Source: Bacteroidota bacterium
GTDB lineage: Bacteria; Bacteroidota; Ignavibacteria; Kapaibacteriales; UBA2268
DNA length: 64,000 nt
Assembly (NCBI GenBank): GCA_048267165.1
Contig: JBLWYD010000001.1
Span: 73 to 64,072 of the forward strand
Direction: 5' to 3'
The notes beneath the pieces were generated by a model. The model was not told where the DNA came from. It worked only from the letters and a program-made list of their open reading frames with translations, and ran no database searches. This document shows, in pieces, positions 11,914 through 29,190 of this stretch (position 1 is the first letter of the stretch; each line of letters begins with the position of its first letter). Both the position numbers and the translations under genes were made by a program.

Positions 11914-12801
11914 ATGGTTAACATTTTAGAAAAGTATTTAAATAGAGTTATTCAAGGTGACTGTTTAGAAGTTATGCCCTATATCCCAGAAAAATCAATA
12001 GATATGATCCTTTGTGATTTACCTTATGGAACTACCCAAAATAAATGGGACTCCGTAATTGATTTAGATAAACTTTGGAAAGAGTACAAAAGAATTATCA
12101 AAGATAACGGAGCTATCGTTCTTACTTCTCAAGGAGTATTTACTGCCAAACTTATTTTGAGTAACGAACAAGATTTTAAATATAAAATTACTTGGATAAA
12201 ATCTAAATCTACAAATTTTCTTAACGCAAAAAAGCAACCATTACGTAAACATGAAGATATTTGCGTCTTCTATAAAAAACAACCTCAATATAATCCTCAG
12301 ATGTCGAATGGAGAGGCATATGATAAAGGGGTGAGAAAAGACCAATACACAGGGAGTTATGGCGAATTTAAACCACGACATGTTAAAAGTAACGGAAAAC
12401 GCTATCCTAATGATGTATTGTTCTATGATGAACAACAAATGGACGATTATGTTTATGTAAAAACAGCAGAATCAGAAGGAACAGTTTATCACCCTACTCA
12501 AAAACCTATTGAATTAGGAAGATATTTAATACGCACATTTTCAAAGCCTGGAGATGTCATTCTTGATAACGCTTGTGGTAGTGGTAGCTTCTTACTTTCA
12601 GCGATGTTAGAGAATAGAAATTTTATAGGGATTGAGAAAAATGAAGATGTTTTACTACACAAAGTAGAGCCTGTTGATTATATCAAAGTTTGTACTGATA
12701 GAATTGAAGAAGTTCTAAAATCTAAAGATATTAATATTGCAACACAACAACTTTTTAAAGAACCAATTACAGAATACCATACATTGAATTATGAAATTTA
12801 A
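11914..12801 (+). CDS. beta-class amino DNA methyltransferase (N6-adenine or N4-cytosine)
   Basis: Motif IV-like ILCDLPYG precedes motif I-like FSKPGDVILDNACGSGSF, which is the beta-class permutation. Confidence 0.85.
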   Translation: MVNILEKYLNRVIQGDCLEVMPYIPEKSIDMILCDLPYGTTQNKWDSVIDLDKLWKEYKRIIKDNGAIVLTSQGVFTAKLILSNEQDFKYKITWIKSKSTNFLNAKKQPLRKHEDICVFYKKQPQYNPQMSNGEAYDKGVRKDQYTGSYGEFKPRHVKSNGKRYPNDVLFYDEQQMDDYVYVKTAESEGTVYHPTQKPIELGRYLIRTFSKPGDVILDNACGSGSFLLSAMLENRNFIGIEKNEDVLLHKVEPVDYIKVCTDRIEEVLKSKDINIATQQLFKEPITEYHTLNYEI

Positions 12802-15685
12802 CGAAAGAGCTTGGGCAGGTCAAATTATAAGTTGGATAAAACTCGCAATTTCTGACGGCACTACTATATTTCAAGACGCGACTAATGATGAAGGTTTAAA
12901 ATTAGCATCGGGAAGAACCAAGTTTCCTGATGTCCTCCTGTTTATTGATAAAATATCAGGCGTTGTTTTCAATGGTTGGGAATTGAAGTTTCCCGATACC
13001 GAAGCAGATAACACAGAAATGTTAGAAAATGCATTGGAAAAAGCTGAAAGACTGCAATCAGATTCTTTTGTCACATGGAATGGCACAGAAGCAATTATTT
13101 GGAAAATAAAGGATGATGATTATTCGCTTTCTGGATTGGAAAAAATAAAAGTTTACGCTAAAGAAAATGATATCAAAAATAGAAATGATTTAGCTGATAA
13201 AAACAATTATAATAAACATGAGGCGAAACTTCATGATAGGCTTAACGAAATTTTACACGATTTAGGGCAACTTTACTTAAGTGGTCAGCTAAAAAAAGCT
13301 ATAAACATTTCATCAAACATTGTTGAAGCAGTTACACAAACCGCTTTTCATTTTATTCCGCAATTAAAAAATGAAATAAACATACTGAAAGGAGTTGACA
13401 ACGATTTCAGAAGAGAGTTCAATCAATGGAAAATTATTGAGAGTAGTACACTTAAAATACTTTCTACCTCATCGAGACGCGTTGTTAATATAGGACCCGA
13501 AGAAATACTCGCTAAGTTTAGTTACTACAAGCTAATAGGGAAAATTCTATTCTACCTTACGCTTTCAGAAAATTTGTCGGAGAAAGTTTCCAAATTGGAA
13601 TTGAAGAATAATAAACAGGTACAAAAGCAATTAAATCACTTTTTTAATCAAGCAAAGAAAATAGATTATCAAGCCGTTTTTGGAAATGATTTTACTGATA
13701 AAATCTTATTTAATGATACCATAGACGAGTATTTATTTAAACTTATTGCAGTTTTTAACGAATTTGATTTCAAAATTTTGCCAACTGAAGTTATAGGAAA
13801 CATTTTAGAAAATTTAGTTCCACAAGAAGAAAAACAAAAATTCGGTCAGTACTTTACTCCAGAAACTTTGGCAAATCTTGTTACATTCTCTGCAATTAGA
13901 ACTATAAATGACATTGTAATTGACCCAACTTCGGGAACTGGAACATTTTTAAATTCCTTCTATAAAACCTTGCAATTTTTCGGTAATAATAACCATCAAC
14001 AAATCCTGAATCAGGTTTGGGGCAATGACATTTCGCATTTTCCTGCAACACTATCAGTAATTAACTTATACAAACAAAAAGTTAATGATACAGCAAATTT
14101 TCCGCGTGTAATCCGTAAAGATTTTTTCACTTTAAACCCAAAACAAACAATCTCAATTCCTGACAACAAGGATATTGATAAATTCAATCAAATTCCGATA
14201 CCGAAATTTGATGCTATCATTTCAAATTTCCCTTTTATACAACAGGAAGATATTCCGAATGAAATTTTAAATGCACAGTTTGAGAGTGAGTTTTCCAAAA
14301 CACAGGCTGCATTTCTTAAAGGGAAGAAATTTGAAATCAATGGAAAAAGCGATTATTATATATATTGCTTTTACAATTCGTTGAAATTCTTGAAAGACAA
14401 TGGTATGTTATCCGCAATAACATCAAACGCTTGGTTGGGTAAGAATTATGGCTTACAGTTTAAAAAGTTTCTATTGAATAATTTTCATATTAAATACATT
14501 GTGAAAAGCAATGCCGAGCATTGGTTTAAAGATTCAAAAGTCAGTACCATTTACATAACACTTGAAAAATCGGCAAGCAAAGAGCCTACAAAGTTTATAA
14601 CGGTTAATAAAAAATTAGAGCAACTATTTATTGGTAAATCGCTTCAAGAATTCGAAGACTTTTATACCGAGGTTGATAATTGCAACTATCCTCAAAATAA
14701 AAATTGGAAAGAGGACACCCAATTTAGAAATGTTTATCATAAAGCAGACGGTTCTATAACTGTAAGTTTTGTTGAGCAATCGAACTTGGTGAATTCTCTT
14801 GCTTCGCAAGAAAATTGGGCAACATATTTTGTCAATCAAAACCCGTTAAGCATTTTTGAAAAGAAACTAATAAATCCTTATCGGAGTATTTATGATACAG
14901 GAAGGGGAACACGTACAAGTTGGGATAAGATGCACATTATTTCTAATGATGAAAACAACGTTTTGAAAATCGAAAAAGAATTTCTATTACCCATTTTGAA
15001 ATCAAGTCGGGAGTTAGAAACCATTGCTCACAGAAACAAACCCAAATACAATCTTTTCATTTGCAGTAGGGATGCAAACACACTAAAGAAAAAATTTCCG
15101 AACGCATACAAGCACATCAAGAAATTTGAAACAACAACTAACAAAACAGGCATTGCATTACCCGAAGTTTTAAAAGTGAGAAAGCCATTTTGGTATTCAC
15201 TTGTACCAGAAGAATCAGCAAATATTTTTATTTCTATTAATCCTAGCAAGCGATTATTCTTTTCCTATAACAAATCGCCTTTGTATCTCAATCAAAGATT
15301 GGTTGCCATTCGTGTAAAAAAGAAAGATGTTGAGATTGTTTCTGCATTACTCAATTCAATCGTTTCGTTATTGATTGTTGAACTAAATGGGGTTTCAAGA
15401 AATTTGGGAGTTTTAGATTTAAATGCTGATTTCTTTAAAACTAAGATGAAAATACTTGATCTAAGCTTACTCTCAAATCAACAAAAAGCAAATATTCTTA
15501 AAAAATATAAGCCCCTATGTAACCGGGTAATAAAGGATTTTGAATTCGATTGTCAGCAACAAGACAGAATTTCATTTGATGAAGAAGTATTAAAATCTTT
15601 CGGTTTCAGTAAACATATTCTACCACCATTGTATTCGCTTTTAACCGAAACAATTCGTAATAGAGTAGAAATGAAGGACAGATAA
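12791..15685 (+). CDS. Type IIG restriction enzyme / gamma-class N6-adenine methyltransferase fusion (Eco57I-like architecture)
   Basis: The N-terminus carries a PD-ExK candidate, FPDVLLFID...GWELKFPD. QYFTPETLANLV + IDPTSGTGTFL serves as motif X/I, and AIISNFPFIQQ is an NPPY-like motif IV. The protein is 964 aa and overlaps the upstream methyltransferase by 11 nt. Confidence 0.8.
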   Translation: MKFNERAWAGQIISWIKLAISDGTTIFQDATNDEGLKLASGRTKFPDVLLFIDKISGVVFNGWELKFPDTEADNTEMLENALEKAERLQSDSFVTWNGTEAIIWKIKDDDYSLSGLEKIKVYAKENDIKNRNDLADKNNYNKHEAKLHDRLNEILHDLGQLYLSGQLKKAINISSNIVEAVTQTAFHFIPQLKNEINILKGVDNDFRREFNQWKIIESSTLKILSTSSRRVVNIGPEEILAKFSYYKLIGKILFYLTLSENLSEKVSKLELKNNKQVQKQLNHFFNQAKKIDYQAVFGNDFTDKILFNDTIDEYLFKLIAVFNEFDFKILPTEVIGNILENLVPQEEKQKFGQYFTPETLANLVTFSAIRTINDIVIDPTSGTGTFLNSFYKTLQFFGNNNHQQILNQVWGNDISHFPATLSVINLYKQKVNDTANFPRVIRKDFFTLNPKQTISIPDNKDIDKFNQIPIPKFDAIISNFPFIQQEDIPNEILNAQFESEFSKTQAAFLKGKKFEINGKSDYYIYCFYNSLKFLKDNGMLSAITSNAWLGKNYGLQFKKFLLNNFHIKYIVKSNAEHWFKDSKVSTIYITLEKSASKEPTKFITVNKKLEQLFIGKSLQEFEDFYTEVDNCNYPQNKNWKEDTQFRNVYHKADGSITVSFVEQSNLVNSLASQENWATYFVNQNPLSIFEKKLINPYRSIYDTGRGTRTSWDKMHIISNDENNVLKIEKEFLLPILKSSRELETIAHRNKPKYNLFICSRDANTLKKKFPNAYKHIKKFETTTNKTGIALPEVLKVRKPFWYSLVPEESANIFISINPSKRLFFSYNKSPLYLNQRLVAIRVKKKDVEIVSALLNSIVSLLIVELNGVSRNLGVLDLNADFFKTKMKILDLSLLSNQQKANILKKYKPLCNRVIKDFEFDCQQQDRISFDEEVLKSFGFSKHILPPLYSLLTETIRNRVEMKDR

Positions 15686-15803: not shown

Positions 15804-17267
15804 ATGGAAAAAATCAAAGTAACATTAGCCAAGGGCGACGGAATTGGATTAGAAATCACTGATGCGGTAATAGACATACTAGAAGCTGCAGGCGCACCAC
15901 TAGAATACGAAGAAATCAGCGTAGGCGAGAAAGTCTATCTAGATGGAATAAAAACGGGTATTCCCGAAGAAGCGTGGGACATAATCACTCGCAACGGTGC
16001 ATTCCTCAAAGGGCCTATCACTACTCCTCAGGGTGGTGGTTACAAAAGTTTGAACGTGACTATCAGAAAGTCATTGGGGTTATTTGCTAACGTACGTCCA
16101 GTAAAGGCGTATCACCCTTATATCAAAACTCACTTTCCGGGTATGGATATAGTAGTTGTGCGTGAGAATGAGGAAGATCTTTACGCTGGTATCGAACATC
16201 AGCAAACGCCAGAAGTAGTACAAGCACTAAAGCTAATCTCAAGACCGGGCTCGGAAAAGATAATCCGCTATGCCTTCGAATACGCTAAGGCACACGGCAG
16301 AAAGAAAGTTACTTGTATGACCAAAGACAATATAATGAAGCACGCCGATGGTTTGTTTCACCAAGTGTTCAATGAAGTTAGAGTAGATTATCCTGAAATA
16401 GAATCTGAACATTACATTATTGACATCGGGACTGCAAGAGTAGCGAACGACCCGAATAGATTCGACGTTATAGTAACTCTGAACCTATACGGTGATATAA
16501 TCTCAGACGTAACGGCTGAAATAGCTGGTTCAGTGGGGCTAGGTGGCTCGTCTAATGTAGGTGAAAACGTAGCAATGTTCGAGGCGATACACGGCTCGGC
16601 ACCAGACATAGCAGGCAAAGACATAGCGAACCCTAGTGGATTGCTTAACGGCGCTTGTATGATGCTAGTACACCTAAACCTAGGTGAGTACGCTTACAAG
16701 ATTCAAAATGCACTATTCAAAACTATAGAAGACGGTATCCACACTGGCGATATGAAGAGCGAGCACACTCGTGACTTAGTAGGAACTAAGGCATTCGCTC
16801 ACGCGGTAATAGCTAGATTGGGGCAAAAGCCAGAACACCTAACTATACCACAACCAACTAACCACCAAATAATAATCCCGGGTTGTAATATCCGCCGAGT
16901 ACCTAAAACATTGGTAGGTGTAGATGTGTTCATAGACTGGGTCGCGCTAGGCAGAGACCCGCACGAATTAGCAAAAGAGCTGCAGCCACTAGCACCAAAC
17001 GGAACAATGCTAAAGACTATCTCGAACAGAGGAATAGCTGTATGGCCGGGCAAAGAGCGAGATATATTCTGCTCTGACCACTGGTATTGCCGATTCGTAA
17101 GCGAGCAGTATGAAGCAACTGAAGGACAAGCAGAGTTCAGCTATGAGGCAATAGTAGAACTACTAGGCAACTTCAACAAAGCTGGCTTCAACTTCATCAA
17201 GATAGAGAATCTATATACTTTCGAAGGGAAGCGTGGTTACTCGCTATCACAAGGCGAGACTAGTTAG
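15804..17267 (+). CDS. icd: isocitrate dehydrogenase (~480-aa form with C-terminal extension)
   Basis: It shows the isocitrate/isopropylmalate dehydrogenase family pattern (LAKGDGIGLEI, SLNVTIRKSLGLFANVRP, NLYGDIISD, GSAPDIAGK). Confidence 0.85.
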   Translation: MEKIKVTLAKGDGIGLEITDAVIDILEAAGAPLEYEEISVGEKVYLDGIKTGIPEEAWDIITRNGAFLKGPITTPQGGGYKSLNVTIRKSLGLFANVRPVKAYHPYIKTHFPGMDIVVVRENEEDLYAGIEHQQTPEVVQALKLISRPGSEKIIRYAFEYAKAHGRKKVTCMTKDNIMKHADGLFHQVFNEVRVDYPEIESEHYIIDIGTARVANDPNRFDVIVTLNLYGDIISDVTAEIAGSVGLGGSSNVGENVAMFEAIHGSAPDIAGKDIANPSGLLNGACMMLVHLNLGEYAYKIQNALFKTIEDGIHTGDMKSEHTRDLVGTKAFAHAVIARLGQKPEHLTIPQPTNHQIIIPGCNIRRVPKTLVGVDVFIDWVALGRDPHELAKELQPLAPNGTMLKTISNRGIAVWPGKERDIFCSDHWYCRFVSEQYEATEGQAEFSYEAIVELLGNFNKAGFNFIKIENLYTFEGKRGYSLSQGETS

Positions 17268-17335: not shown

Positions 17336-18070
17336 TTGAAAAATGATATTGAGATAAAGATGACAGAAAAAAAGAAACTAGAGATGATTACTGAATATTT
17401 CAAAGAGAACATATTCGAATCACATATTTACAACTCAACTAAAAAGCATTCAAAACTAAAATCTTATAGTATTAATCCAATTGTAGTTAAATATCTTTCT
17501 AAGGTGCTTGAAGATGATTTCACACCTATTGGAATAGCAAAAGCATTGTATTTACCTAGAGTCCTTGGCACATCAATTAACACAACTTTCGGAACAATAA
17601 TACAGAAAATGTTCATTGAGTTAAATCTTGCAAAGCCTTCAATTGTTCAAGGTATGGATATTGAGTTTATTGATAAAATAGATGGACGAAATAAGTGGTG
17701 TCAACTAAAGTCAGGGCCAAATACGATAAATTCAGGTGATGTAAAACCACTTATTTCTAAATTTAATAGCGTAGCGAATCTCGCTCGTACCAACGCTATG
17801 TCTCTGAATAATACAGATTTAGTTCTTGGTGTTCTATACGGTGAAGCGGAACAACTAAGCCAACATTACAAGAAAATAGACGAAGTATTCCCAGTTTATA
17901 TAGGGAAAGAGTTTTGGTATAGATTAACAGGTCACCCCGATTTCTATTCCAAGTTAGTCAAATCATTAGATGTAATGATTCTTACTTTAGATACGAAGGA
18001 CTTCTACGAGAAAGGCTACACAGCACTTGCTGAAGAAATAAGAGCTTCAGATTTATTCGATTTTGCATAA
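17336..18070 (+). CDS. putative Type II restriction endonuclease (partner of the adjacent C5 methyltransferase); likely start is the ATG at 17360
   Basis: It is convergent with and overlaps a C5-MTase. A PD-(D/E)xK candidate is present: DIEFIDKIDGRNKWCQLKSG. I recognise no other family. Confidence 0.55.
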   Translation: MKNDIEIKMTEKKKLEMITEYFKENIFESHIYNSTKKHSKLKSYSINPIVVKYLSKVLEDDFTPIGIAKALYLPRVLGTSINTTFGTIIQKMFIELNLAKPSIVQGMDIEFIDKIDGRNKWCQLKSGPNTINSGDVKPLISKFNSVANLARTNAMSLNNTDLVLGVLYGEAEQLSQHYKKIDEVFPVYIGKEFWYRLTGHPDFYSKLVKSLDVMILTLDTKDFYEKGYTALAEEIRASDLFDFA

Positions 18071-19284
18071 ACTTCATTCAAGAATTTCACTATAGAAAAA
18101 CCGATTTCCTTTGCCAAATTAACTGGTACAGCATTACCTATTTGCTTATACTGTTGTGATACCGAACCAGCGAATTCCCAATTATCAGGGAATGTCTGAA
18201 TACGTGCATATTCTCGAACTGTGAAAGGTCTAGTCTCGTCTGGATGACATCTTTCAGTTTGCTTTTGAGCTGGGCTACAAGTCAACGTTAGACAAGGTTC
18301 ATCCCAACCGATTCTACGAGCCATACCTGTTTTGCCACCACCTAGATAAAAGCTGCCGCCCATATATTCTTTTTGCAATTCTAATGGGAGGTCACGCCAA
18401 TATCCCTTAGGTGGGATTAAATCGAGTATTACTTTTTTAGATTTGGGGTATTGTGTTCCTTTTGATACGGGTACATCACAATCGAAAAGCTCTCCTTTCT
18501 TAAGAGCATCTTCTAGCGTATATATTTTTCTGAACGCTTTTGGATATTCGAATTCTATATCTAAATCCTTGCGGATACCTACTAATATCAATCGTTCACG
18601 TTTCTGAGGAACATTGTAATTAATAGCTTTTAGAACTTGAATAGGCATAACTCGATAACCAATTTCATCAAGAATTGATATCATCCCTTGGAGTGTTTTA
18701 CCTTTCTCGTGACTGAGCAAGCCGCGAACATTTTCACCAATGCAAATAGGTGGTTTTACTTCGTCTATTACTCTCGCAAATTCGTAGAACAGAGTACCAC
18801 GAGCATCTTCTAACCCCAGTTTTTTACCTGCATAACTAAAGGCTTGGCAAGGGAATCCTCCAGTAACTATATCAACTTTTCCATTATACTTTTTGAATTT
18901 ATAGTCTTTTATATCACCTTCTAAAACTTCCCATTTTGGGCGATTAGTTCTTAGGGTTTCGCAAGCCCATTTGTCTATTTCATTGAGGGCGACACAGCTA
19001 AGACCAGCTTTCTCTAGTCCAAGAGCAAGTCCACCTGCTCCTGCAAATAGTTCCAAGACATTATATTTATTATCTGCCTCGACGAAATTGAGATTAGTAT
19101 CATCTTCTTCCTCTATCAGACCTAGAAACGATTCAATGTCCCCACGTCTATATACGCGATAATTAGAAACTGGCTCACGCACGGCTTCAAATATACCTTC
19201 TCTGTCCCATCTTCTTAGGGTTTCTTTGCTCTTCCCGATTAGGTCGGAAGTCTCAGATAATGATAAATAATCTTTCATAACCAT
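18016..19284 (-). CDS. DNA (cytosine-5)-methyltransferase with an N-terminal MerR-like HTH
   Basis: Motif I ELFAGAGGLALG, motif IV GGFPCQAFS, ENV, QKRERL and motif X GNAVP are present. The N-terminus is LSLSETSDLIGKSKETLRRWDREG. Confidence 0.93.
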   Translation of the reverse strand: MVMKDYLSLSETSDLIGKSKETLRRWDREGIFEAVREPVSNYRVYRRGDIESFLGLIEEEDDTNLNFVEADNKYNVLELFAGAGGLALGLEKAGLSCVALNEIDKWACETLRTNRPKWEVLEGDIKDYKFKKYNGKVDIVTGGFPCQAFSYAGKKLGLEDARGTLFYEFARVIDEVKPPICIGENVRGLLSHEKGKTLQGMISILDEIGYRVMPIQVLKAINYNVPQKRERLILVGIRKDLDIEFEYPKAFRKIYTLEDALKKGELFDCDVPVSKGTQYPKSKKVILDLIPPKGYWRDLPLELQKEYMGGSFYLGGGKTGMARRIGWDEPCLTLTCSPAQKQTERCHPDETRPFTVREYARIQTFPDNWEFAGSVSQQYKQIGNAVPVNLAKEIGFSIVKFLNEVYAKSNKSEALISSASAV

Positions 19285-19368
19285 CTTATTAAACGTTATA
19301 CATTGGTTACAAATTTAATGATTATTTATTCAAATCCAAATAGGTTTTTATGATTGTTGAAATTTACT

Positions 19369-19398
19369 CGCGGTTGGGGTGAGGGATTTTTTTTGTAT
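19369..19398 (+). repeat. right copy of the 30-bp direct repeat bracketing the Type II R-M cassette
   Basis: CGCGGTTGGGGTGAGGGATTTTTTTTGTAT. Only the 3' half of the icd terminator is duplicated here. Confidence 0.85.
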
Positions 19399-19539
19399 TA
19401 TCGCTAGCGTAGTTTTGTAAGATTAGTTACGAGATTTAAGCTTTAAAATTAGCGAATAAAACACAAATAGAGTTCGTGAGGACTTACATAATTAGTCTTT
19501 TACCAGCAATTAATTCTATTCTGTGTTGAGATAGTATTT

Positions 19540-20349
19540 TTAATATTCTCTTGGTATTAAAGCAAACCATTTTTTCTCTTTTCCTTTATTGTCTTTATAT
19601 TTATACCCTTCTTTCCATAAAATAGGCATACTATTATTTGGAGGAGAATAGAAAAAACTAACTAAAAGACCTCTATCATAATCGAGGTTACCTGGATTTT
19701 TTAACTTTTTATTAAGATTGATTAATTTTTTTTTAAACTTATCGGGAAAGGTTTTACAATTTTCTGTATAATGCTGAAAATCACTTTCTATCAATTCAAT
19801 CCCATTAATCACCTTGAAGTTTGTTTCTGTAGAAACTTTTTGTATTCCCTCTGAAGTTGCACAAATTGTTAGTAGGTAGGGCTTGTGACTTGGATTTATA
19901 AGTAAATTTAATTTATCTAAAATATATTTCGTTGATTGAGTTCCTGTTCCAATTAAGTCTTCTACAAATATTATAGTACTTTCTTCAGGTAATTTACTTA
20001 AATCCCAACCATTCACGAAATTTTTACTATTGAATAATTTGGTATGTCTAAATTCATAAGCAATTTTCCCACCACTTTTCCCCTCACTACCAAATGAAGT
20101 TATGTATAGATTATCTACATTAAATACTTCTGAATTATTCTCTACAATATCGTGAATTACAGATCTAATTCTTTGTGCATCAAATATTTCAATATTATCG
20201 AGTAACTTTAGAATTTCTAGCCAGTTAAGATTAGTTTGAGATTTAAATTTGGGTACAGAGTTTGGTCGATAACTCTGACAACGAATTAACTTTTGTTCAA
20301 TTTTGTTAACTCCAAGAAACTTGTAAATAATAGAATCTATCTTTTCCAT
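19540..20349 (-). CDS. phosphoribosyltransferase (PRTase)-fold protein of unknown specificity
   Basis: A PRPP-loop-like motif TIIFVEDLIGTGTQST sits behind a ~110-aa unknown N-terminal region. The gene starts 3 nt after the ParB-like gene stop. Confidence 0.6.
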   Translation of the reverse strand: MEKIDSIIYKFLGVNKIEQKLIRCQSYRPNSVPKFKSQTNLNWLEILKLLDNIEIFDAQRIRSVIHDIVENNSEVFNVDNLYITSFGSEGKSGGKIAYEFRHTKLFNSKNFVNGWDLSKLPEESTIIFVEDLIGTGTQSTKYILDKLNLLINPSHKPYLLTICATSEGIQKVSTETNFKVINGIELIESDFQHYTENCKTFPDKFKKKLINLNKKLKNPGNLDYDRGLLVSFFYSPPNNSMPILWKEGYKYKDNKGKEKKWFALIPREY

Positions 20350-20352
20350 ATT

Positions 20353-21285
20353 TTAATCGATAGATTCTATTATTGCATCTAATCTTCTTTGTAATTGTTT
20401 AAGCTGGTCTTCAAAATATAAATCACTAATAAGGTCTGTATTTATTTGATCTAAATTAGTGTTTAAGTAAGAAATATATTTTAGTATGTTTTTCCGATTT
20501 CGTTCCTCTTCAAGATCCTCACTTACAAAAATTTCTAAACCAATGTCATTATTGATAAATTCAATAATTTTATTAACGAATTCTTGGAAATTATTTGATT
20601 TTTCATAAAAGCCAAGAGCCTTTCTAATTTCTCGAAGTTCTTTTACATCGCTTAAATGTTTCTGCTCTTTAAATTTAACTATACATTTATCTACAAAAAA
20701 ACTAATTCCTTCAGGGTACTTAAATTCAGGTTCATAACTTAATCTATTTGCGATTGGATATAATTCAATGAAAAAATCAGTCGATATTCTACCACCTTTT
20801 TCCATTAATACATCTCTATACTTTGGTGGGTACCAAAGCAAGGCTTTACATCTCCTTATCGTGGATCTGCTTACGCCTGTGAATTCATTAAGAACTGTTT
20901 CGCTTTCCGTCCCTAATTTGTCAATAATTATTTCCAATTTTAATGCAGTTGGAAAAAGAGCCCATTCCTTTCTAAAATGATGGATGTTAAACATAAATAA
21001 GATGTTTTGAGTGATATCTTTCGGTTCATCAATCACATTTGCAGGGATCGTTTCTAAACCTAATTCCGTTGCACATCTCCATCTTCTTTCGCCATCAAGA
21101 ATAATATATTCTTCTTTAGGGAATTCTTTTGAATTCTTATAAACAGTTAATGGCACTAAAATTCCAACTTTTGAAATAGAATTTTTTAAATCATTCAATT
21201 CGTTTGGTTCGAAAATTAAACGCGGATTGTATGGGTTAGGAGCAATTTCAGAAACCCTTATCTCTCTTAATGTTTTATTTTCCAT
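20353..21285 (-). CDS. ParB/Srx-fold N-terminal domain protein with HTH and a coiled-coil C-terminus
   Basis: IRVSEIAPNPYNPR, GILVPLTV and ILDGERRWRCA (ParB GERRxRA arginine patch) are present, along with the HTH-like TGVSRSTIRR. No ParA partner is seen. Confidence 0.75.
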   Translation of the reverse strand: MENKTLREIRVSEIAPNPYNPRLIFEPNELNDLKNSISKVGILVPLTVYKNSKEFPKEEYIILDGERRWRCATELGLETIPANVIDEPKDITQNILFMFNIHHFRKEWALFPTALKLEIIIDKLGTESETVLNEFTGVSRSTIRRCKALLWYPPKYRDVLMEKGGRISTDFFIELYPIANRLSYEPEFKYPEGISFFVDKCIVKFKEQKHLSDVKELREIRKALGFYEKSNNFQEFVNKIIEFINNDIGLEIFVSEDLEEERNRKNILKYISYLNTNLDQINTDLISDLYFEDQLKQLQRRLDAIIESID

Positions 21286-21449
21286 TCTATACCCGAGTGT
21301 TTTTTATATATTATGCCCAACTATTCAGATTTACGAAAATTCGTATATCATTATACTACTAATATACCAAAAAAAACAATCCCCCAATCAACCCCACCAA
21401 AAAATATTCCCCTTTCATCTTTCCCTCTCTTACCTTAATTTACCAGTCT

Positions 21450-22664
21450 ATGAAAAACAAAGAACAAATAAAAGCAGACATAATAGCCAATCTATTCAGC
21501 AAGCATAGAATGGGTATAAAACCTGGGTTGGAGCGAACTATTGCTCTTGCCGAGGCGATGGGCAACCCACAAAAGGGTTACGACACTATCCACGTAGCTG
21601 GGACTAATGGCAAGGGTAGCACTTGCTCGGTGGCTAGTTCTATACTGATAGAATCGGGGCGGAAAGTGGGGCTATATACTTCGCCGCATATCAAGGATTT
21701 CAACGAACGGATTAGGGTCAATGGCGTTGCTATTACAGATGATGAGCTGATAGAATATGCCGAGAAATTGCTCCCGATCGCCGAAGAAATGGACGCTACG
21801 TTTTTCGAAATTACTACCGTTATGGCGTTTATGTATTTCGCTGATAGGTGTGTCGATATCGCGGTTATAGAGACTGGTATGGGTGGGCAATTCGACAGTA
21901 CGAATATCCTCAATCCCAAAGTCTGCGTTATCACTGATATTGATATGGATCACGAGGAGTTCCTCGGCGATACGATAGAGAAAATTGCATTCGAAAAAGC
22001 TGGAATTATCAAGCCAAATACACCGATTATGACTACTAATGAATCGGCTGAAGTGCTCGCAGTAATCCGAGAAAAAGCCACTAAAGAGAATGCAGAGCTG
22101 ACACTATCGGAAGTTCAAACTAATGATGAAGTCGCTACTGCTATCCGCTCCAAATTCATCAGTCACTCGTTTATCAAGAACTACTCGGCAGCTCTGTTGG
22201 CTTGCGAGGTTTTTCTCGGTCAGCCAATAAGCACCGATACACAAACAAAAGCAATTGCTAATATAGAGAAGAACTCGGGCTACTTTGCTCGGTTGCAGAT
22301 GATAAGCCATGAGCCGTACTGCATACTCGATATTTCGCACTCGGTGGCTGCTGCGAAAAACCTAGTCGAGTCATTGCAATCAACTTTCATAGACAAAAAA
22401 TGGACGATTATATTAGCACTGATGAGCGACAAAGATTACCGCGGAATAATAGATGAATTAGCAGAAATTTCAGACCTGATGATACTCACGCAAGTCGAGA
22501 ACGAGCGCTCTATGTCAGCCATTGACCTGAGCTACTATGCCGAGTCTAGAGGAATAAACTCGATGATAATGATAGACCCGAAAAGAGCTAAGAAATTCGC
22601 TTTTGATAGTAAGCTAGATTGTGTTATCACTGGGTCGTTTTACTTAGCAGCTGAGGTTTTTTGA
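21450..22664 (+). CDS. folC: bifunctional folylpolyglutamate synthase / dihydrofolate synthase
   Basis: HVAGTNGKGST P-loop, a Mur-ligase family pattern, and DMDHEEFLG. Confidence 0.88.
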   Translation: MKNKEQIKADIIANLFSKHRMGIKPGLERTIALAEAMGNPQKGYDTIHVAGTNGKGSTCSVASSILIESGRKVGLYTSPHIKDFNERIRVNGVAITDDELIEYAEKLLPIAEEMDATFFEITTVMAFMYFADRCVDIAVIETGMGGQFDSTNILNPKVCVITDIDMDHEEFLGDTIEKIAFEKAGIIKPNTPIMTTNESAEVLAVIREKATKENAELTLSEVQTNDEVATAIRSKFISHSFIKNYSAALLACEVFLGQPISTDTQTKAIANIEKNSGYFARLQMISHEPYCILDISHSVAAAKNLVESLQSTFIDKKWTIILALMSDKDYRGIIDELAEISDLMILTQVENERSMSAIDLSYYAESRGINSMIMIDPKRAKKFAFDSKLDCVITGSFYLAAEVF

Positions 22665-25608: not shown

Positions 25609-28600
25609 TTATTCTTTCACGAATTGTACATAAACATTATCATTAATTCTGATAAAGTAAGTACCCGTTTCTAAATATTCGATACTTATATTCTGTACCA
25701 TTTGTGGAGCTAGGTTATTGTTAGATAATAATGCTTTTCCATTTAAGTCTAAAACAACTATAGAACTAATTCCTTTTTCGTAGCTTATGTTTATCTCTTC
25801 TTTCGCAGGGTTAGGGTATATGCTTAGCTTGTACTCAATTCCAAAATCATTAATGCTAGAGACTGTACTAACGTTCTCAGCACCCGGTGTAGGAGTCATA
25901 ACTCTGAAATCGCCAGTACCATTCGGATATCTTCCAACAGATATATCAGTCTCTTGACTACCAAAGTTAACAGAATCAATGATTGACAATTCAGCATTAG
26001 TTAGATATATTGATTCGCCACTTGCTGATAATTTGAGATCTGCGTGATAGCCTTCTTGTTCCATTTCTTTATCCGCCCATACTATTATATACCCATTCGG
26101 TTGAATCATAGTACCAGTAGGGAAAGTAAATAATGTAAAGTCAGTAATATCATCTGTTAGTGCATAGCCACCCAAATCAACTGCCACACTACCTTTATTA
26201 TATAGCTCTACCCAATCGTCGTAGCCGCCGTCTTGGTCTGCTAATGTTACTTCATTCGAAGCTAAGAACTCATTGATAACAATTTCACTTGGGACTACTA
26301 ATACAGTATTCATTGTACCTGGTGTAGGAGTCATAATTCTGAAATCACCAGTCCCGTTAGGTAATCTACCATAAGATATATCAGTCTCTTGACTACCAAA
26401 GTTAACAGAATCAATGATTGACAATTCAGCATTTGTAAGGTATAAAGACTCGCCACTTGTTGATAATTTGATATCCGCGTGAAATCCTTCTTGTTCCATT
26501 TCCTTATCAGCCCATACTATTATATATCCATCAGGTTGAATCATAGTACCAGTAGGGAAAGTAAATAATGTAAAGTCAGTAATATCATCTGTTAGTGCAT
26601 AGCCACCCAAATCAACTGCCACACTACCTTTGTTGTATATTTCTATCCAATCATCATAAGCGCCATCTTGGTCAGCTAGAGTTACTTCATTTGAAGCTAG
26701 GAACTCATTGATAACGATTTCATTAGCAGCTGTTCCTAACATATTCTCTGCACTCGGTGTAGGAGTCATTACTTTAAATTCACCAGTACCATTAGGAAAT
26801 CTACCATAAGAAATATCCGTTTCTTGGCTTCCAAAGTTAACAGAATCAATGATTGCTAATTCAGAATTTGTAAGGTACAGTGACTCACCACTTGCTGATA
26901 ATTTGAGATCTGCGTGAAATCCTTCTTGTTCCATTTCCTTATCTGCCCATACTATTATATACCCATTCGGTTGAATCATAGTGCCAGCAGGGAATGTAAA
27001 TAATGTAAAATCTGTGATATCATCAGTAAGTGAGTATCCTTCCAAATCAACTGTTACGCTACCTTTGTTATATATTTCTATCCAATCGTCATAAGCGCCA
27101 TCTTGGTCAGCTAAAGTTACTTCATTTGAGGCAAGGAATTCATTTATTACGATTTCACTTGCTGCTGATTCAACAGTGTTCATTGCACCCGGTGTTGGAG
27201 TCATAACTCTGAAATCGCCAGTACCATTCGGGTATCTTCCAACAGATATATCTGTTTCTTGACTACCAAAATTGACAGAATCGATAATTGATAATTCAGC
27301 ATTAGTTAGATATATTGATTCGCCACTTGCTGATAATTTGAGATCTGCGTGATAGCCTTCTTGTTCCATTTCCTTATCTGCCCAAACTACTATATACTCA
27401 TTTGGTTGAATCATAGTACCAGTAGGGAATGTAAATAATGTAAAATCAGTGATATCATCAGTAAGTGAGTATCCTTCCAAATCAACTGTTACGCTACCTT
27501 TGTTGTATATTTCTATCCAATCGTCGTAACCGCCGTCTTGGTCAGCTATAGTAACATCATTCGATGCCAAAAACTCATTTATTACTATATCACCTTCAGC
27601 AGTTTCAATACTAGATTTGATTGAGTAAAATTCGTGTTCTGCATTAGTAGGTGAGAATTTTCCAATTGTACTGTTTTCAGCATATATATAATATTCCGTT
27701 ATTGCTGATTCTATCGTAATCTCTGCACCATATACATTATCATTTGCAGCGCCATCATTATGCTGACCATCATCATACATAGTTACTTTACTAAATGGTG
27801 CTCTATCTTGTGTTCTATATCTTAATACTACGGCATCTTCATTTACTACGTTAGCAGTTATACCTATTTTATTACCAACTTTAGGAGTACTAGTAGAAGT
27901 TTTAATGTCTGATATTGTTGGCTCAGTTGTAGAAAAATCACTTAATCCCATCAGGTAAGAATATCTACCATTCATCAAAGTAGTGATACCAGGTGTAGAG
28001 CTACCCGGACCAGGACCACCACCACCAGAAATATCTGATGTTAGATTAGAGACAAAGTTATTGTAAGTATAGAATTTGTTCTGGTCTGCTTGTACGTGAG
28101 CATCAATAATAGCTTGCATAGCTAGACCTTCAGTATAGTATAGCCCATTATTAGTGAAGTTATCAGTTAGGAATGTTTTGCAATGCGCTAAATACATTTT
28201 CTTATAAGTTGGGACACTCAATAATTGACTTATAAGTGGGTATGAAGCATCATTTGAATGAAGTAAATGATCTAATCTTTGTTTAGATGCAGTGTTATTC
28301 AGATTCCCAGAACCAGACATAGAGAATGTACCTATAGACTCGTTCAAGTCCCATACAACTGGTATAAATCTACCATTGTCATCTCTGTATAAGTAATAAT
28401 TCTGTGCGAATCCACCAATATAGCTATCTAAGTTTACAATCATATTATCGAAAGCTAACATCCATAAAGCTCTATCTACATCAAGGATTTTTTCTATATC
28501 AGCAACGTTATTTTTTAATGTATCACATAGGTCAATTAGCTCATCCCACCCAGTATCCGATTTCAATTCGTAAGCACTGTAATACTGAGAACTGTCATTG

Positions 28601-29190
28601 CCTTTGTAAACCAAATTGGGAAGGGAAGTAGTTCCTTGCCCAGCACCATTTACAGGATTACATTTCACGAAAGTATTAGATTTAGACCCAAATCTACTAT
28701 CAACAAACTTTTTAGAAACTGCCTCTGAACTTGAATATAAACCAATAAGTTTATCGTTAACATATACATTTGCAAAGTTAGAAAGAGGAGCATCCATATA
28801 TTCTCTTAGCAATTTGTAGCTAAGAACTTCTCTAATAAATGAAGGGTCTTTAGCTGCATTGCTTAGCTTTATATCCGTATAGTTCTCATATTTTTGATCT
28901 TTATAAGTATCTAGTTCTATATGAAATGGATTTTTAGTTTGTCTTGAATCATAAGTGCTATTTCCTTTGTACTTAACACCAACGCTATCGAAGAATACGC
29001 CATTTATCGTAACACTTTGTGCCATTATGTAGTTCTCATCGCCCGCCTTCTCAGCGTCTAGAAGAGCATCCCAATTGCTTTCTGCAAATACAATTTTAAT
29101 AGTTTGTACTTTATCTATATTGTAGAAATCTTGAGCCGATATGAGACTAAATGATATTAGAAAAGTAAGTAGAGTAAATATTTTTGTCAT
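25609..29190 (-). CDS. secreted CotH-family protein with four tandem lamin-tail (LTD) domains and a T9SS C-terminal sorting domain
   Basis: It has a signal peptide and an N-terminal CotH-like region. Then come 4 copies of INEFLASN..DQDG.YDDWIEIYNKG...DL.GY.LTDD, and the C-terminus is SIYPNPAKEEINISY... Confidence 0.8.
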   Translation of the reverse strand: MTKIFTLLTFLISFSLISAQDFYNIDKVQTIKIVFAESNWDALLDAEKAGDENYIMAQSVTINGVFFDSVGVKYKGNSTYDSRQTKNPFHIELDTYKDQKYENYTDIKLSNAAKDPSFIREVLSYKLLREYMDAPLSNFANVYVNDKLIGLYSSSEAVSKKFVDSRFGSKSNTFVKCNPVNGAGQGTTSLPNLVYKGNDSSQYYSAYELKSDTGWDELIDLCDTLKNNVADIEKILDVDRALWMLAFDNMIVNLDSYIGGFAQNYYLYRDDNGRFIPVVWDLNESIGTFSMSGSGNLNNTASKQRLDHLLHSNDASYPLISQLLSVPTYKKMYLAHCKTFLTDNFTNNGLYYTEGLAMQAIIDAHVQADQNKFYTYNNFVSNLTSDISGGGGPGPGSSTPGITTLMNGRYSYLMGLSDFSTTEPTISDIKTSTSTPKVGNKIGITANVVNEDAVVLRYRTQDRAPFSKVTMYDDGQHNDGAANDNVYGAEITIESAITEYYIYAENSTIGKFSPTNAEHEFYSIKSSIETAEGDIVINEFLASNDVTIADQDGGYDDWIEIYNKGSVTVDLEGYSLTDDITDFTLFTFPTGTMIQPNEYIVVWADKEMEQEGYHADLKLSASGESIYLTNAELSIIDSVNFGSQETDISVGRYPNGTGDFRVMTPTPGAMNTVESAASEIVINEFLASNEVTLADQDGAYDDWIEIYNKGSVTVDLEGYSLTDDITDFTLFTFPAGTMIQPNGYIIVWADKEMEQEGFHADLKLSASGESLYLTNSELAIIDSVNFGSQETDISYGRFPNGTGEFKVMTPTPSAENMLGTAANEIVINEFLASNEVTLADQDGAYDDWIEIYNKGSVAVDLGGYALTDDITDFTLFTFPTGTMIQPDGYIIVWADKEMEQEGFHADIKLSTSGESLYLTNAELSIIDSVNFGSQETDISYGRLPNGTGDFRIMTPTPGTMNTVLVVPSEIVINEFLASNEVTLADQDGGYDDWVELYNKGSVAVDLGGYALTDDITDFTLFTFPTGTMIQPNGYIIVWADKEMEQEGYHADLKLSASGESIYLTNAELSIIDSVNFGSQETDISVGRYPNGTGDFRVMTPTPGAENVSTVSSINDFGIEYKLSIYPNPAKEEINISYEKGISSIVVLDLNGKALLSNNNLAPQMVQNISIEYLETGTYFIRINDNVYVQFVKE
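25875..27595 (-). repeat. four tandem ~435-bp near-identical coding repeats (LTD modules) inside the CotH gene
   Basis: Repeat starts on the minus strand fall at about 27592, 27158, 26725 and 26290. Long stretches are identical at the DNA level. Confidence 0.9.

Follow-up and report, generated by a model that had tools for sequence, protein, structure and literature searches.

A mobile two-gene cassette that pairs a ParB-like protein with a retron-type phosphoribosyltransferase: a predicted conflict module

The DNA stretch analysed here, referred to as the window, comprises 64,000 nucleotides of a Bacteroidota bacterium (assembly GCA_048267165.1, contig JBLWYD010000001.1, positions 73 to 64,072 of the forward strand) and contains two adjacent minus-strand genes, which code for a ParB-like protein and a protein of the phosphoribosyltransferase (PRTase) fold. 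We propose that these genes constitute a mobile conflict module of the defence or abortive-infection type, in which the ParB-like protein is predicted to act as sensor or regulator and the PRTase, a member of the PRTase-CE family, as effector; the probability of this reading is estimated at about 0.58. The cassette is thus a plausible candidate for an undescribed defence-type system, built as a modular sensor-effector pair with a retron-type PRTase. The ParB-like gene (20353 to 21285) encodes a protein of 310 amino acids, which consists of an N-terminal nucleoside triphosphate (NTP)-binding domain, a central helix-turn-helix (HTH) and, towards the C-terminus, a helical region peculiar to the family. 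The PRTase gene (19540 to 20349) encodes 269 amino acids, which form an N-terminal helical subdomain and a type-I PRTase core without a C-terminal winged HTH (wHTH). Between them lie only the three nucleotides AAT (20350 to 20352), the upstream gene ending with TAA at 20355-20353 and the downstream gene starting with ATG at 20349; in homologous loci, this spacing is mostly -4 to +14 nucleotides. An earlier note, made by reading the letters of the window, had described the pair in this form, and its open reading frames (ORFs) and coordinates were confirmed, as was the presence in the translations of the peptides it had quoted, namely ILDGERRWRCA and TGVSRSTIRR in the ParB-like protein and the acidic-pair peptide TIIFVEDLIGTGTQST in the PRTase.

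The two proteins are a coupled functional unit, strictly linked in every informative locus retrieved. A search of a genome collection anchored on the ParB-like protein gave 78 loci, and a PRTase-anchored search of a metagenome collection gave 48. A PRTase with an intact phosphoribosyl pyrophosphate (PRPP) loop abuts the ParB-like gene downstream in 27 of the 78 genome loci, which include, wherever downstream sequence is available, every locus with a ParB-like protein that scores above 210 bits on the family profile (locus L036 ends at the ParB gene). In the metagenome loci of the window clade, a ParB-like gene lies directly upstream of the PRTase in all 24 informative cases; four contigs that start at the PRTase gene and L105, which has too little upstream sequence, stand outside this count. 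ParB_N followed by PRTase-CE is also found in six of six homologues with annotated neighbourhoods. Over 34 loci, pairwise identities among the ParB-like proteins correlate tightly with those among the PRTases (Mantel r=0.95, a value reached in 0 of 2000 permutations), and the ParB-like protein is more conserved than the PRTase in 99 % of these comparisons. The earlier note had named the co-occurrence of the two genes outside this genome as a point to check, and these counts bear it out.

The PRTase matches the Pfam family PF24390, "PRTase-CE", with E=4.3e-27 over residues 35-267, and the earlier note, which had expected a generic PRTase family and had described an unrecognisable N-terminal region of about 110 amino acids, is corrected in both respects, as most of that region falls inside the PF24390 model. 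A search against PADLOC v2 (E<=1), a collection that presumably includes models for ShosTA and PsyrTA, returned five matches, all of them to PRTase_III-A models of type III-A retrons (best E=6.6e-28). This agrees with the view that the protein is an effector-type PRTase. The best of these models has 393 positions, of which only positions 38-260 are covered by the window protein, which stops at residue 269; therefore, it lacks the C-terminal winged helix of the retron effector. The AlphaFold2 (AF2) model of the PRTase (predicted local distance difference test, pLDDT, 91.8; predicted template modelling score, pTM, 0.86) contains no wHTH either, and in Foldseek it matches the type-I PRTases XGPRT, HGXPRT, UPRT and OPRT at probability 1.0, at just 12-19 % identity. 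Together with the conserved loops, these matches identify a type I PRTase fold, for which a five-stranded core with a PRPP loop (an acidic pair followed by T-G) and a pyrophosphate loop is typical. The motif FGSEGKSGG (residues 86-94; 20068 to 20094), in which F86, G87, K91, S92 and G93 are invariant, is presumably the pyrophosphate (PPi) loop known from this fold. The PRPP loop IIFVEDLIGTGTQS (residues 126-139; 19933 to 19974) is canonical, has D131, T135 and G136 as invariant residues and recurs in each of the 27 PRTases that accompany a ParB-like gene in the genome collection. Towards the C-terminus, the protein carries a conserved G…PNN…P…WK motif (G227, P237-N238-N239, P242 and W245-K246; 19612 to 19671). 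A Gx14PNNxP signature has been reported to be specific to retron-associated PRTases (PMC12746101); the spacing of the PNN signature differs in the window protein. Searches with the PRTase gave no match in NCBIfam, none among the PHROGs, and nothing useful from sequence comparison with the Protein Data Bank (PDB).

The ParB-like protein is of the canonical ParB/Noc/KorB type, with an N-domain and an HTH. As the earlier note had anticipated, it matches Pfam ParB_N (PF02195, E=1.8e-19) over residues 5-94 (21004 to 21273), a domain that includes the C-motif-like PNPYNPR and the arginine patch GERRWR (Box II or P-motif; residues 65-70; 21076 to 21093) within ILDGERRWRCA. The family alignment shows no variation at G65, E66, R67, R68 or W69 and almost none at R70. 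The HTH (residues 129-151, ...FTGVSRSTIRRCKALL; 20833 to 20901) aligns with the DNA-binding HTH of ParB and Noc, and residues ~165-310 make up a helical region that is specific to the family. Residues 4-162 of the family profile, i.e. the N-domain and the HTH, align to the structure of CDP-bound Spo0J (6sdk, E=9e-16), and alignments were also obtained with Noc, Caulobacter ParB and Myxococcus ParB-family structures (7bnk, 7bnr). The AF2 model (pLDDT 81.6) has Noc (7nfu) as its top Foldseek match, with a target TM of 0.67 and 24-25 % identity, followed by ParB-CDP, ParB-CTPγS and KorB. Mean column identity within the family is 70 % across phyla. The earlier note had placed the protein near the DUF262 sensors of GmrSD-type systems; no DUF262 match was found in it with Pfam, and in PADLOC-DB v2 it gives only weak matches to ParB-MTase fusion models, so this kinship does not hold. 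Membership of the cassette in Menshen, GmrSD, SspE or DndB systems was rejected as well, because the protein is not DUF262-type and PADLOC returned no match to those systems.

The integrity of the arginine patch makes nucleotide binding by the ParB-like protein plausible. Two other motifs of the cytidine triphosphate (CTP) switch are altered in the family. The C-motif PNPYQPR has become PNPxNPR, in which asparagine replaces glutamine, and the 'ENLQR' box of ParB (Box III) is represented by the family-invariant F-N-I-H-H (residues 99-103; 20977 to 20991), read in the family as F-N-I-H-H-x-R: the asparagine and the following arginine (Arg105) are retained, and the catalytic glutamate is gone. 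In the AF2 model of the monomer, this loop is predicted with low confidence. According to a 2025 survey of the ParB-CTPase fold, nucleotide specificity is not predictable from sequence or from AF3 (PMC12704722). The CTP-gated clamp of the earlier note would therefore have to be taken as conjecture, Box III being altered.

A strong further argument for a sensor/effector unit comes from the more distant homologues of the ParB-like protein (33-50 % identity), which are found in a conserved three-gene operon that the earlier note had missed. A methyltransferase of the D12/Dam class was found in 34 of 40 upstream partners tested, and its gene often overlaps the start of the ParB gene. In 36 loci, the downstream slot is occupied by one family of ~275 amino acids, here called X, which is unrelated to the PRTase; the ParB-like proteins of these loci score 130-230 bits against the profile of the window family. 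The only invariant residues of family X are G106, R231 and H236, which yield an exact R-x4-H motif, and E167 is nearly invariant. Most members match no Pfam model, a few match DUF4145/PF13643, and a sequence search of the PDB with the family found nothing useful; from its motif, family X is read as a divergent, active HEPN domain. In singleton loci, the downstream proteins are mostly unrelated to each other, with a few weak matches to Mrr-like, AHJR-like and DpnI-like restriction endonucleases (REases). The architecture of the family is thus [D12 methylase]–ParB–[PRTase-CE / HEPN-like / other], and the alternative coupling of one ParB-like family to the PRTase or to an R-x4-H HEPN-like protein amounts to effector swapping. 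Two of the alternative enzymes of the slot belong to known classes of toxic defence effectors, the retron III-A PRTases and HEPN. Some PRTase-type relatives retain the methylase: L018-L024 are Dam–ParB–PRTase operons, and in the subclade L089, L098 and L099, whose ParB-like proteins are 64-72 % identical to that of the window and carry an N-terminal DUF7226 extension, a D12 methylase of ~570-620 amino acids lies upstream. The window and its closest relatives (L001-L017) represent a minimal two-gene form without a coupled upstream gene; the window cassette contains no in-operon methylase, ATPase or HNH gene, and the gene upstream of its ParB-like gene is a divergent folC-like gene.

Several variations on these modules were observed in passing. 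DUF7226, which has a weak match to AAA_assoc_C, is added to the N-terminus of the ParB-like protein in L089:6518-7999, L098 and L099, and in L123:2664-3761, where a D12 methylase lies upstream and ParB is absent, PRTase-CE itself carries the DUF7226 fusion; DUF7226 may be a module that couples to the methylase. PRTase-CE itself is modular, being fused to an N-terminal domain of the metallo-β-lactamase fold (~495 amino acids in total) in L128:2349-4467 and L129:4534-6714, where the fusion gene is preceded by a gene of the PF04199 'putative cyclase' family. This arrangement may represent another uncharacterised effector system.

A working model can be derived from the retron effector to which the PRTase is related. 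The effector of Retron-Eco11 combines a PRTase with a wHTH, and its activation leads to a depletion of PRPP and to abortive infection (PMC12746101). In the cassette, the ParB-like protein would sense DNA, or load onto it, as a nucleotide-binding sensor or regulator, thereby supplying in trans the DNA recognition for which the retron effector has its own wHTH. It would then license the PRTase-CE effector, which would consume PRPP or otherwise perturb the nucleotide pool, with arrest of the cell and abortive infection, or a starved invader, as the outcome. Where a methylase completes the three-gene form, its role is presumably to mark self DNA. A more specific form of the proposal is possible, although we regard it as tentative: a canonical ParB/Noc-type switch may have been recruited as an innate-immune DNA sensor which licenses a swappable suicide effector, either PRTase-CE or HEPN. 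The ParB-like protein would then load onto, or slide along, invader DNA, which in the forms with a D12 methylase would be unmethylated DNA. Such a system would amount to a new class of methylation-guided, non-nucleolytic 'restriction' that leads from DNA sensing to collapse of the nucleotide pool, and the window cassette would be a methylase-independent derivative.

Several observations weigh against the conflict-module reading or parts of it. CTP hydrolysis by the ParB-like protein, and even its specificity for CTP, is uncertain because the catalytic glutamate of the ENLQR box has been replaced in FNIHH. A search for parS-like palindromes at the locus (19380-21460) gave weak AT-rich ones only, none of them convincing. 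As the window subclade has no in-operon methylase, the self/non-self logic of the three-gene operons cannot apply to it directly. Some related cassettes, such as L082, sit in housekeeping surroundings with no defence neighbour. Finally, the PRTase of Retron-Eco11 is non-toxic when it is produced alone (PMC12746101).

The cassette is a self-contained, horizontally mobile unit of 1.93 kb. Its nearest relatives, in Tamlana sp. I1 (L001), Polaribacter sp. Z022 (L002) and the metagenome contig L091, share 87-88 % nucleotide homology with the window over a minus-strand block (19391 to 21321) that begins 36 nucleotides upstream of the ParB ATG and ends ~150 nucleotides past the PRTase stop codon, before the neighbouring dcm-like methylase gene (Dcm), which thus lies outside the unit. 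The flanks of these relatives are unrelated to those of the window, meaning that the insertion sites differ at 95 % protein identity. The pair has a GC content of 0.27-0.31, whereas the isocitrate dehydrogenase (IDH) and FolC-like genes on its flanks reach 0.43-0.46 and the gene of Dcm has 0.39; the low GC content reported in the earlier note was thus verified. Related cassettes are found as cargo of an integrase/DUF3987/primase-like element (L079), between insertion sequence (IS) elements (L084), as a bare insertion between housekeeping genes (L082), directly upstream of a Type I restriction-modification (R-M) operon (L085-88) and next to a HATPase_c_3 / PLD-SNF2 cluster (L089). In a scan of 149 ORFs located <=3 kb from the pair in 33 loci, DNA methyltransferases were the commonest neighbour class (10 of 149 ORFs: four D12, four N6_N4 and two C5) among the 25 of 130 families listed, followed by PLD/restriction nucleases and by integrase and transposase genes. 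No relative was found on viral contigs (IMG/VR) with the search patterns used.

The family is rare and patchy, with 129 clusters (50 % identity) at E≤1e-30 among 1.84 billion representatives, and it is widely spread: its hosts belong to Bacteroidota, Planctomycetota, Verrucomicrobiota, Spirochaetota, Bacillota, Acidobacteriota and the archaeal groups Methanoperedenaceae, Methanolobus and Bathyarchaeia, and the identity of the ParB-like proteins across domains reaches 64 %. The archaeal ParB-like proteins of L005 (a Methanoperedenaceae metagenome-assembled genome, MAG), P0157 (Methanolobus sediminis) and L030/L037 (Bathyarchaeia) are at most 63-64 % identical to the Flavobacteriia protein, and the PRTase is attached in L005, L030 and L037. 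Archaeal copies of this similarity with the PRTase attached imply a recent transfer of the cassette between the domains.

In Flavobacteriia, the cassette is trailed by a repeated intergenic element of ~135 nucleotides with a hairpin core, GAAAGTCC-TCGC-GGACTTTC, in which some copies show compensatory changes from G:C to A:T. The window has one partly degraded copy (19391 to 19539, minus strand), directly 3' of the PRTase stop codon. Further copies lie in L002 (2157-2290, 5707-5853 and 6645-6752), L001:11745-11885, L091:1879-2031, L013, L014 and L104. In L002 and L104, the element is present three times, after successive gene blocks, which in L002 are a methylase with an HNH gene, then the ParB-PRTase pair and then a 264-amino-acid ORF. 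No Rfam family matches the element, which by its distribution looks like a cassette-bounding or REP/MITE-like sequence (repetitive extragenic palindrome or miniature inverted-repeat transposable element).

A serious though unlikely competitor to the conflict-module reading is a toxin-antitoxin (TA) or addiction module, in which the PRTase would be a constitutive toxin comparable to ShosT or PsyrT and the ParB-like HTH protein its antitoxin and autorepressor; the pair would then stabilise its carrier element, and defence would be secondary. The gene order, with the DNA-binding protein first and the enzyme 3 nucleotides downstream, is that of type II and type IV TA modules, the pair travels as cargo of integrase and IS elements, and PRTase toxins do exist in ShosTA (PMC11961720). 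Furthermore, the tight co-divergence of the two proteins is equally expected of a cognate TA pair. However, a highly conserved protein of 310 amino acids with an NTP-binding domain would be an atypical antitoxin, given its 70 % mean column identity, and the in-operon methylase of the relatives does not fit a simple TA module. The PADLOC matches point to retron III-A effectors only and not to ShosT or PsyrT, and the lack of toxicity of the Retron-Eco11 PRTase on its own (PMC12746101) speaks against a constitutive toxin.

It is rather improbable that the ParB-like protein itself serves as the DNA nuclease or nickase of an R-M-like system, in keeping with the annotation 'ParB nuclease' given by Anantharaman et al. 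2013, with the PRTase or HEPN protein as back-up suicide effector; in the window, this would take the form of a solitary or modification-dependent restriction factor. The D12 methylase in the operon of most relatives would suit such a system, and some ParB/Srx proteins nick DNA, as cited in PMC12839542. However, the nearest structures are CTP-switch DNA clamps and repressors (Noc, ParB and KorB) rather than nucleases, and in the window, where a cognate methylase is missing, such a nuclease would be toxic to its own host unless it were modification-dependent.

A pathway of nucleotide or DNA modification is a distinctly improbable explanation. Here, the ParB-like NTPase would aid base- or ribosyl-transfer by the PRTase, similar to DpdB and DpdA, and the output would be a modified product instead of PRPP depletion. 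DpdB is a known case of a ParB-like NTPase that assists a transferase in modifying DNA (PMC12839542), the cassette is linked with DNA methylases, and the PRTase of Ophion takes part in a proposed nucleotide-analogue chemistry (10.1101/2025.09.30.679545). On the other side, the sister systems carry an R-x4-H HEPN-like protein where the window has its PRTase, which argues for a toxic effector over a biosynthetic enzyme, and the 1.93-kb unit holds no further biosynthetic genes.

An ordinary partition or nucleoid ParB, coupled by chance to a housekeeping PRTase of purine or pyrimidine salvage, can be dismissed: the ParB-like protein does pass the cut-off of NCBIfam TIGR00180 'ParB/RepB/Spo0J' and the sources annotate homologues as partition proteins, but no ParA was found in the window flanks, in the Pfam-annotated related loci or among the 25 of 130 families listed for the 149 neighbouring ORFs, the family is rare and patchy, the unit is mobile, strictly linked and low in GC, and the PRTase, which is only distantly related to solved PRTases and matches no NCBIfam model, is not a salvage enzyme. 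Co-occurrence and context thus effectively refute a partition function, and the position of homologous pairs in R-M islands, in integrase and IS elements and in bare insertions agrees with the earlier note on this point. A cryptic retron was also considered and rejected, since no reverse transcriptase (RT) is present and ParB_N always lies upstream.

In comparison with known systems, the conflict module proposed here is closest in its effector to the type III-A retrons. The effector of Retron-Eco11 (type III-A3) is a homologous PRTase that shares the PRPP loop and carries a signature of the PNN type, and either system couples its effector to a DNA-binding function. In contrast to the retrons, the window pair has FolC-like and Dcm neighbours and no reverse transcriptase, its partner is a ParB-type protein encoded upstream, and a winged-helix domain is missing both as a fusion and as an auxiliary protein. 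A scan of the window with Rfam brought one tRNA alone to the gathering score; no search aimed at a retron noncoding RNA of the msr/msd kind was made.

On the side of the ParB-like protein, an operon mentioned in 2013 is among the closest known systems. The 'MAE_28990' HEPN family and its methylase–ParB–HEPN operon occupy one line of Table 1 in a computational note (Anantharaman et al. 2013, PMC3710099), and this operon is probably the X-type sister architecture; a search for a named Microcystis member, by which family X could be equated with MAE_28990, returned none. The two share a homologous ParB-like protein, the gene order and an effector in the downstream slot, and the methylase is shared with the PRTase-type relatives that keep it (L018-L024, L089, L098 and L099), whereas the window has a PRTase in place of the HEPN-like protein and no in-operon methylase. 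The canonical CTP switches ParB, Noc and KorB share the fold of N-domain and HTH, the GERRxR patch and the asparagine and arginine of Box III; unlike them, the window protein has no ParA, no recognisable parS at its locus and an enzyme effector as partner, its catalytic glutamate (FNIHH) and its C-motif glutamine (PNPxNPR) are replaced, and its C-terminal helical region is its own.

The sensors of the DUF262 type, i.e. those of GmrSD, SspE, DndB and Menshen (NsnA), resemble the cassette in concept, as they combine a ParB-superfamily NTPase with a DNA-binding domain and swappable effectors (PMC12065111). The window protein, however, belongs to the ParB_N branch, gives no PADLOC match to these systems and has neither an HNH domain nor an ABC ATPase partner, so that the analogy drawn in the earlier note is looser than was implied; its broader interpretation of a coupled, unnamed, non-partition cassette of sensor and effector stood, and it is strengthened by the effector swapping. 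ShosT (ShosTA), PsyrT (PsyrTA) and OpnC (Ophion) are likewise defence-associated proteins of the PRTase fold which disturb nucleotide metabolism (PMC11961720; 10.1101/2025.09.30.679545), and they differ in their partners, which are a DprA-like antitoxin, a RecQ-like helicase, and a radical SAM (rSAM) plus a PHP protein, respectively, in contrast to the ParB-like partner in the window.

Literature searches on PRTase-CE, on ParB plus PRTase in defence and on ParB-like proteins with phosphoribosyltransferases in anti-phage activity found nothing relevant. The term 'PRTase-CE' occurs in no paper of the searched literature, and the origin of the Pfam name could not be traced. A PRTase goes unmentioned in the comparative papers on BREX and Dnd, a preprint on component modularity treats another PRTase system, Ophion (10.1101/2025.09.30.679545), the Menshen paper describes the DUF262-type NsnA with an ABC ATPase, and the ParB-CTPase survey deals with fusion proteins and not with partners encoded in the same operon (PMC12704722). 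Neither the searched literature nor PADLOC v2 thus yielded a description of the PRTase version, in line with the earlier note, which had not recognised the pairing as a named system; a very recent catalogue entry is possible.

The cassette lies among R-M genes in the window, as the earlier note had reported. It adjoins the gene of the Dcm C5-methylase (18016-19284, minus strand), which has a MerR-type HTH at its N-terminus (residues 8-52), possibly with the function of a built-in controller. The 3' end of the Dcm gene overlaps by 55 nucleotides the convergent gene of an EcoO109I-like REase (17336-18070, plus strand). Beyond the IDH gene (15804-17267) lie a Type IIG enzyme (12791-15685) and, beside it, an N6/N4 methylase (11914-12801). 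The housekeeping IDH gene is thus flanked by two separate insertions of low GC content (0.27-0.33): 11914-15685 with the N6/N4 methylase and the Type IIG R-M system, and 17336-21321 with the EcoO109I-like/Dcm R-M system and the ParB-PRTase cassette. No ParA, replication gene or integrase is among the tested genes of the flanks, which extend to 15.8 kb on one side and to 25.5 kb on the other, as the earlier note had stated for the vicinity of the pair; besides the R-M genes, they are IDH, Mur-ligase/FolC-like, HgmA-like and DUF58 genes of housekeeping or unassigned function. Scans for sigma-70 promoters and terminators were uninformative, with match counts close to the shuffled expectation, and the consensus is probably inapplicable to a Bacteroidota host. 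A secreted-looking protein of 1193 amino acids with four near-identical tandem repeats of ~140 amino acids (…EIVINEFLASNEVTLADQDGAYDDWIEIYNKGS…), encoded at 25609-29190 on the minus strand, is unrelated to the cassette.

A functional tie between the cassette and the adjacent Dcm/EcoO109I-like R-M system was considered and is unsupported as a rule, since the homology block stops before Dcm and the GC content differs. Among ~125 loci, L012 is the only other one with such an R-M system nearby, at a distance of 2 kb from the pair. This region of a Lachnospiraceae MAG, a Firmicute (L012:36-5879), contains the ParB-like protein, the PRTase, a close homologue of the window Dcm (E=2e-132) and, with E=1e-60, an REase of the EcoO109I-like type, with a 2.1-kb block of a sigma factor and two DUF4367 proteins between the pair and the R-M genes. 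The co-occurrence of these four genes with those at 17336-21285 in the window could be either the remnant of a co-transfer or a coincidence.

If the proposal is correct, the cassette would be the first module in which a canonical ParB-type switch serves as an immune sensor, and immune sensing would join chromosome segregation, nucleoid occlusion and transcriptional silencing as a task of the ParB-CTPase switch. The PRTase effector of type III-A retrons would prove to be a portable module, in that a protein sensor could drive it in place of an RT–msDNA (multicopy single-stranded DNA) complex, and the pair would offer a simpler two-protein system in which the licensing of the effector and its effect on PRPP can be studied; at 1.93 kb, the cassette is small and readily testable. 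The relatives that combine a D12 methylase, a ParB-like protein and an effector would follow an R-M-like logic, whose "restriction" arm would be an abortive-infection effector rather than a nuclease.

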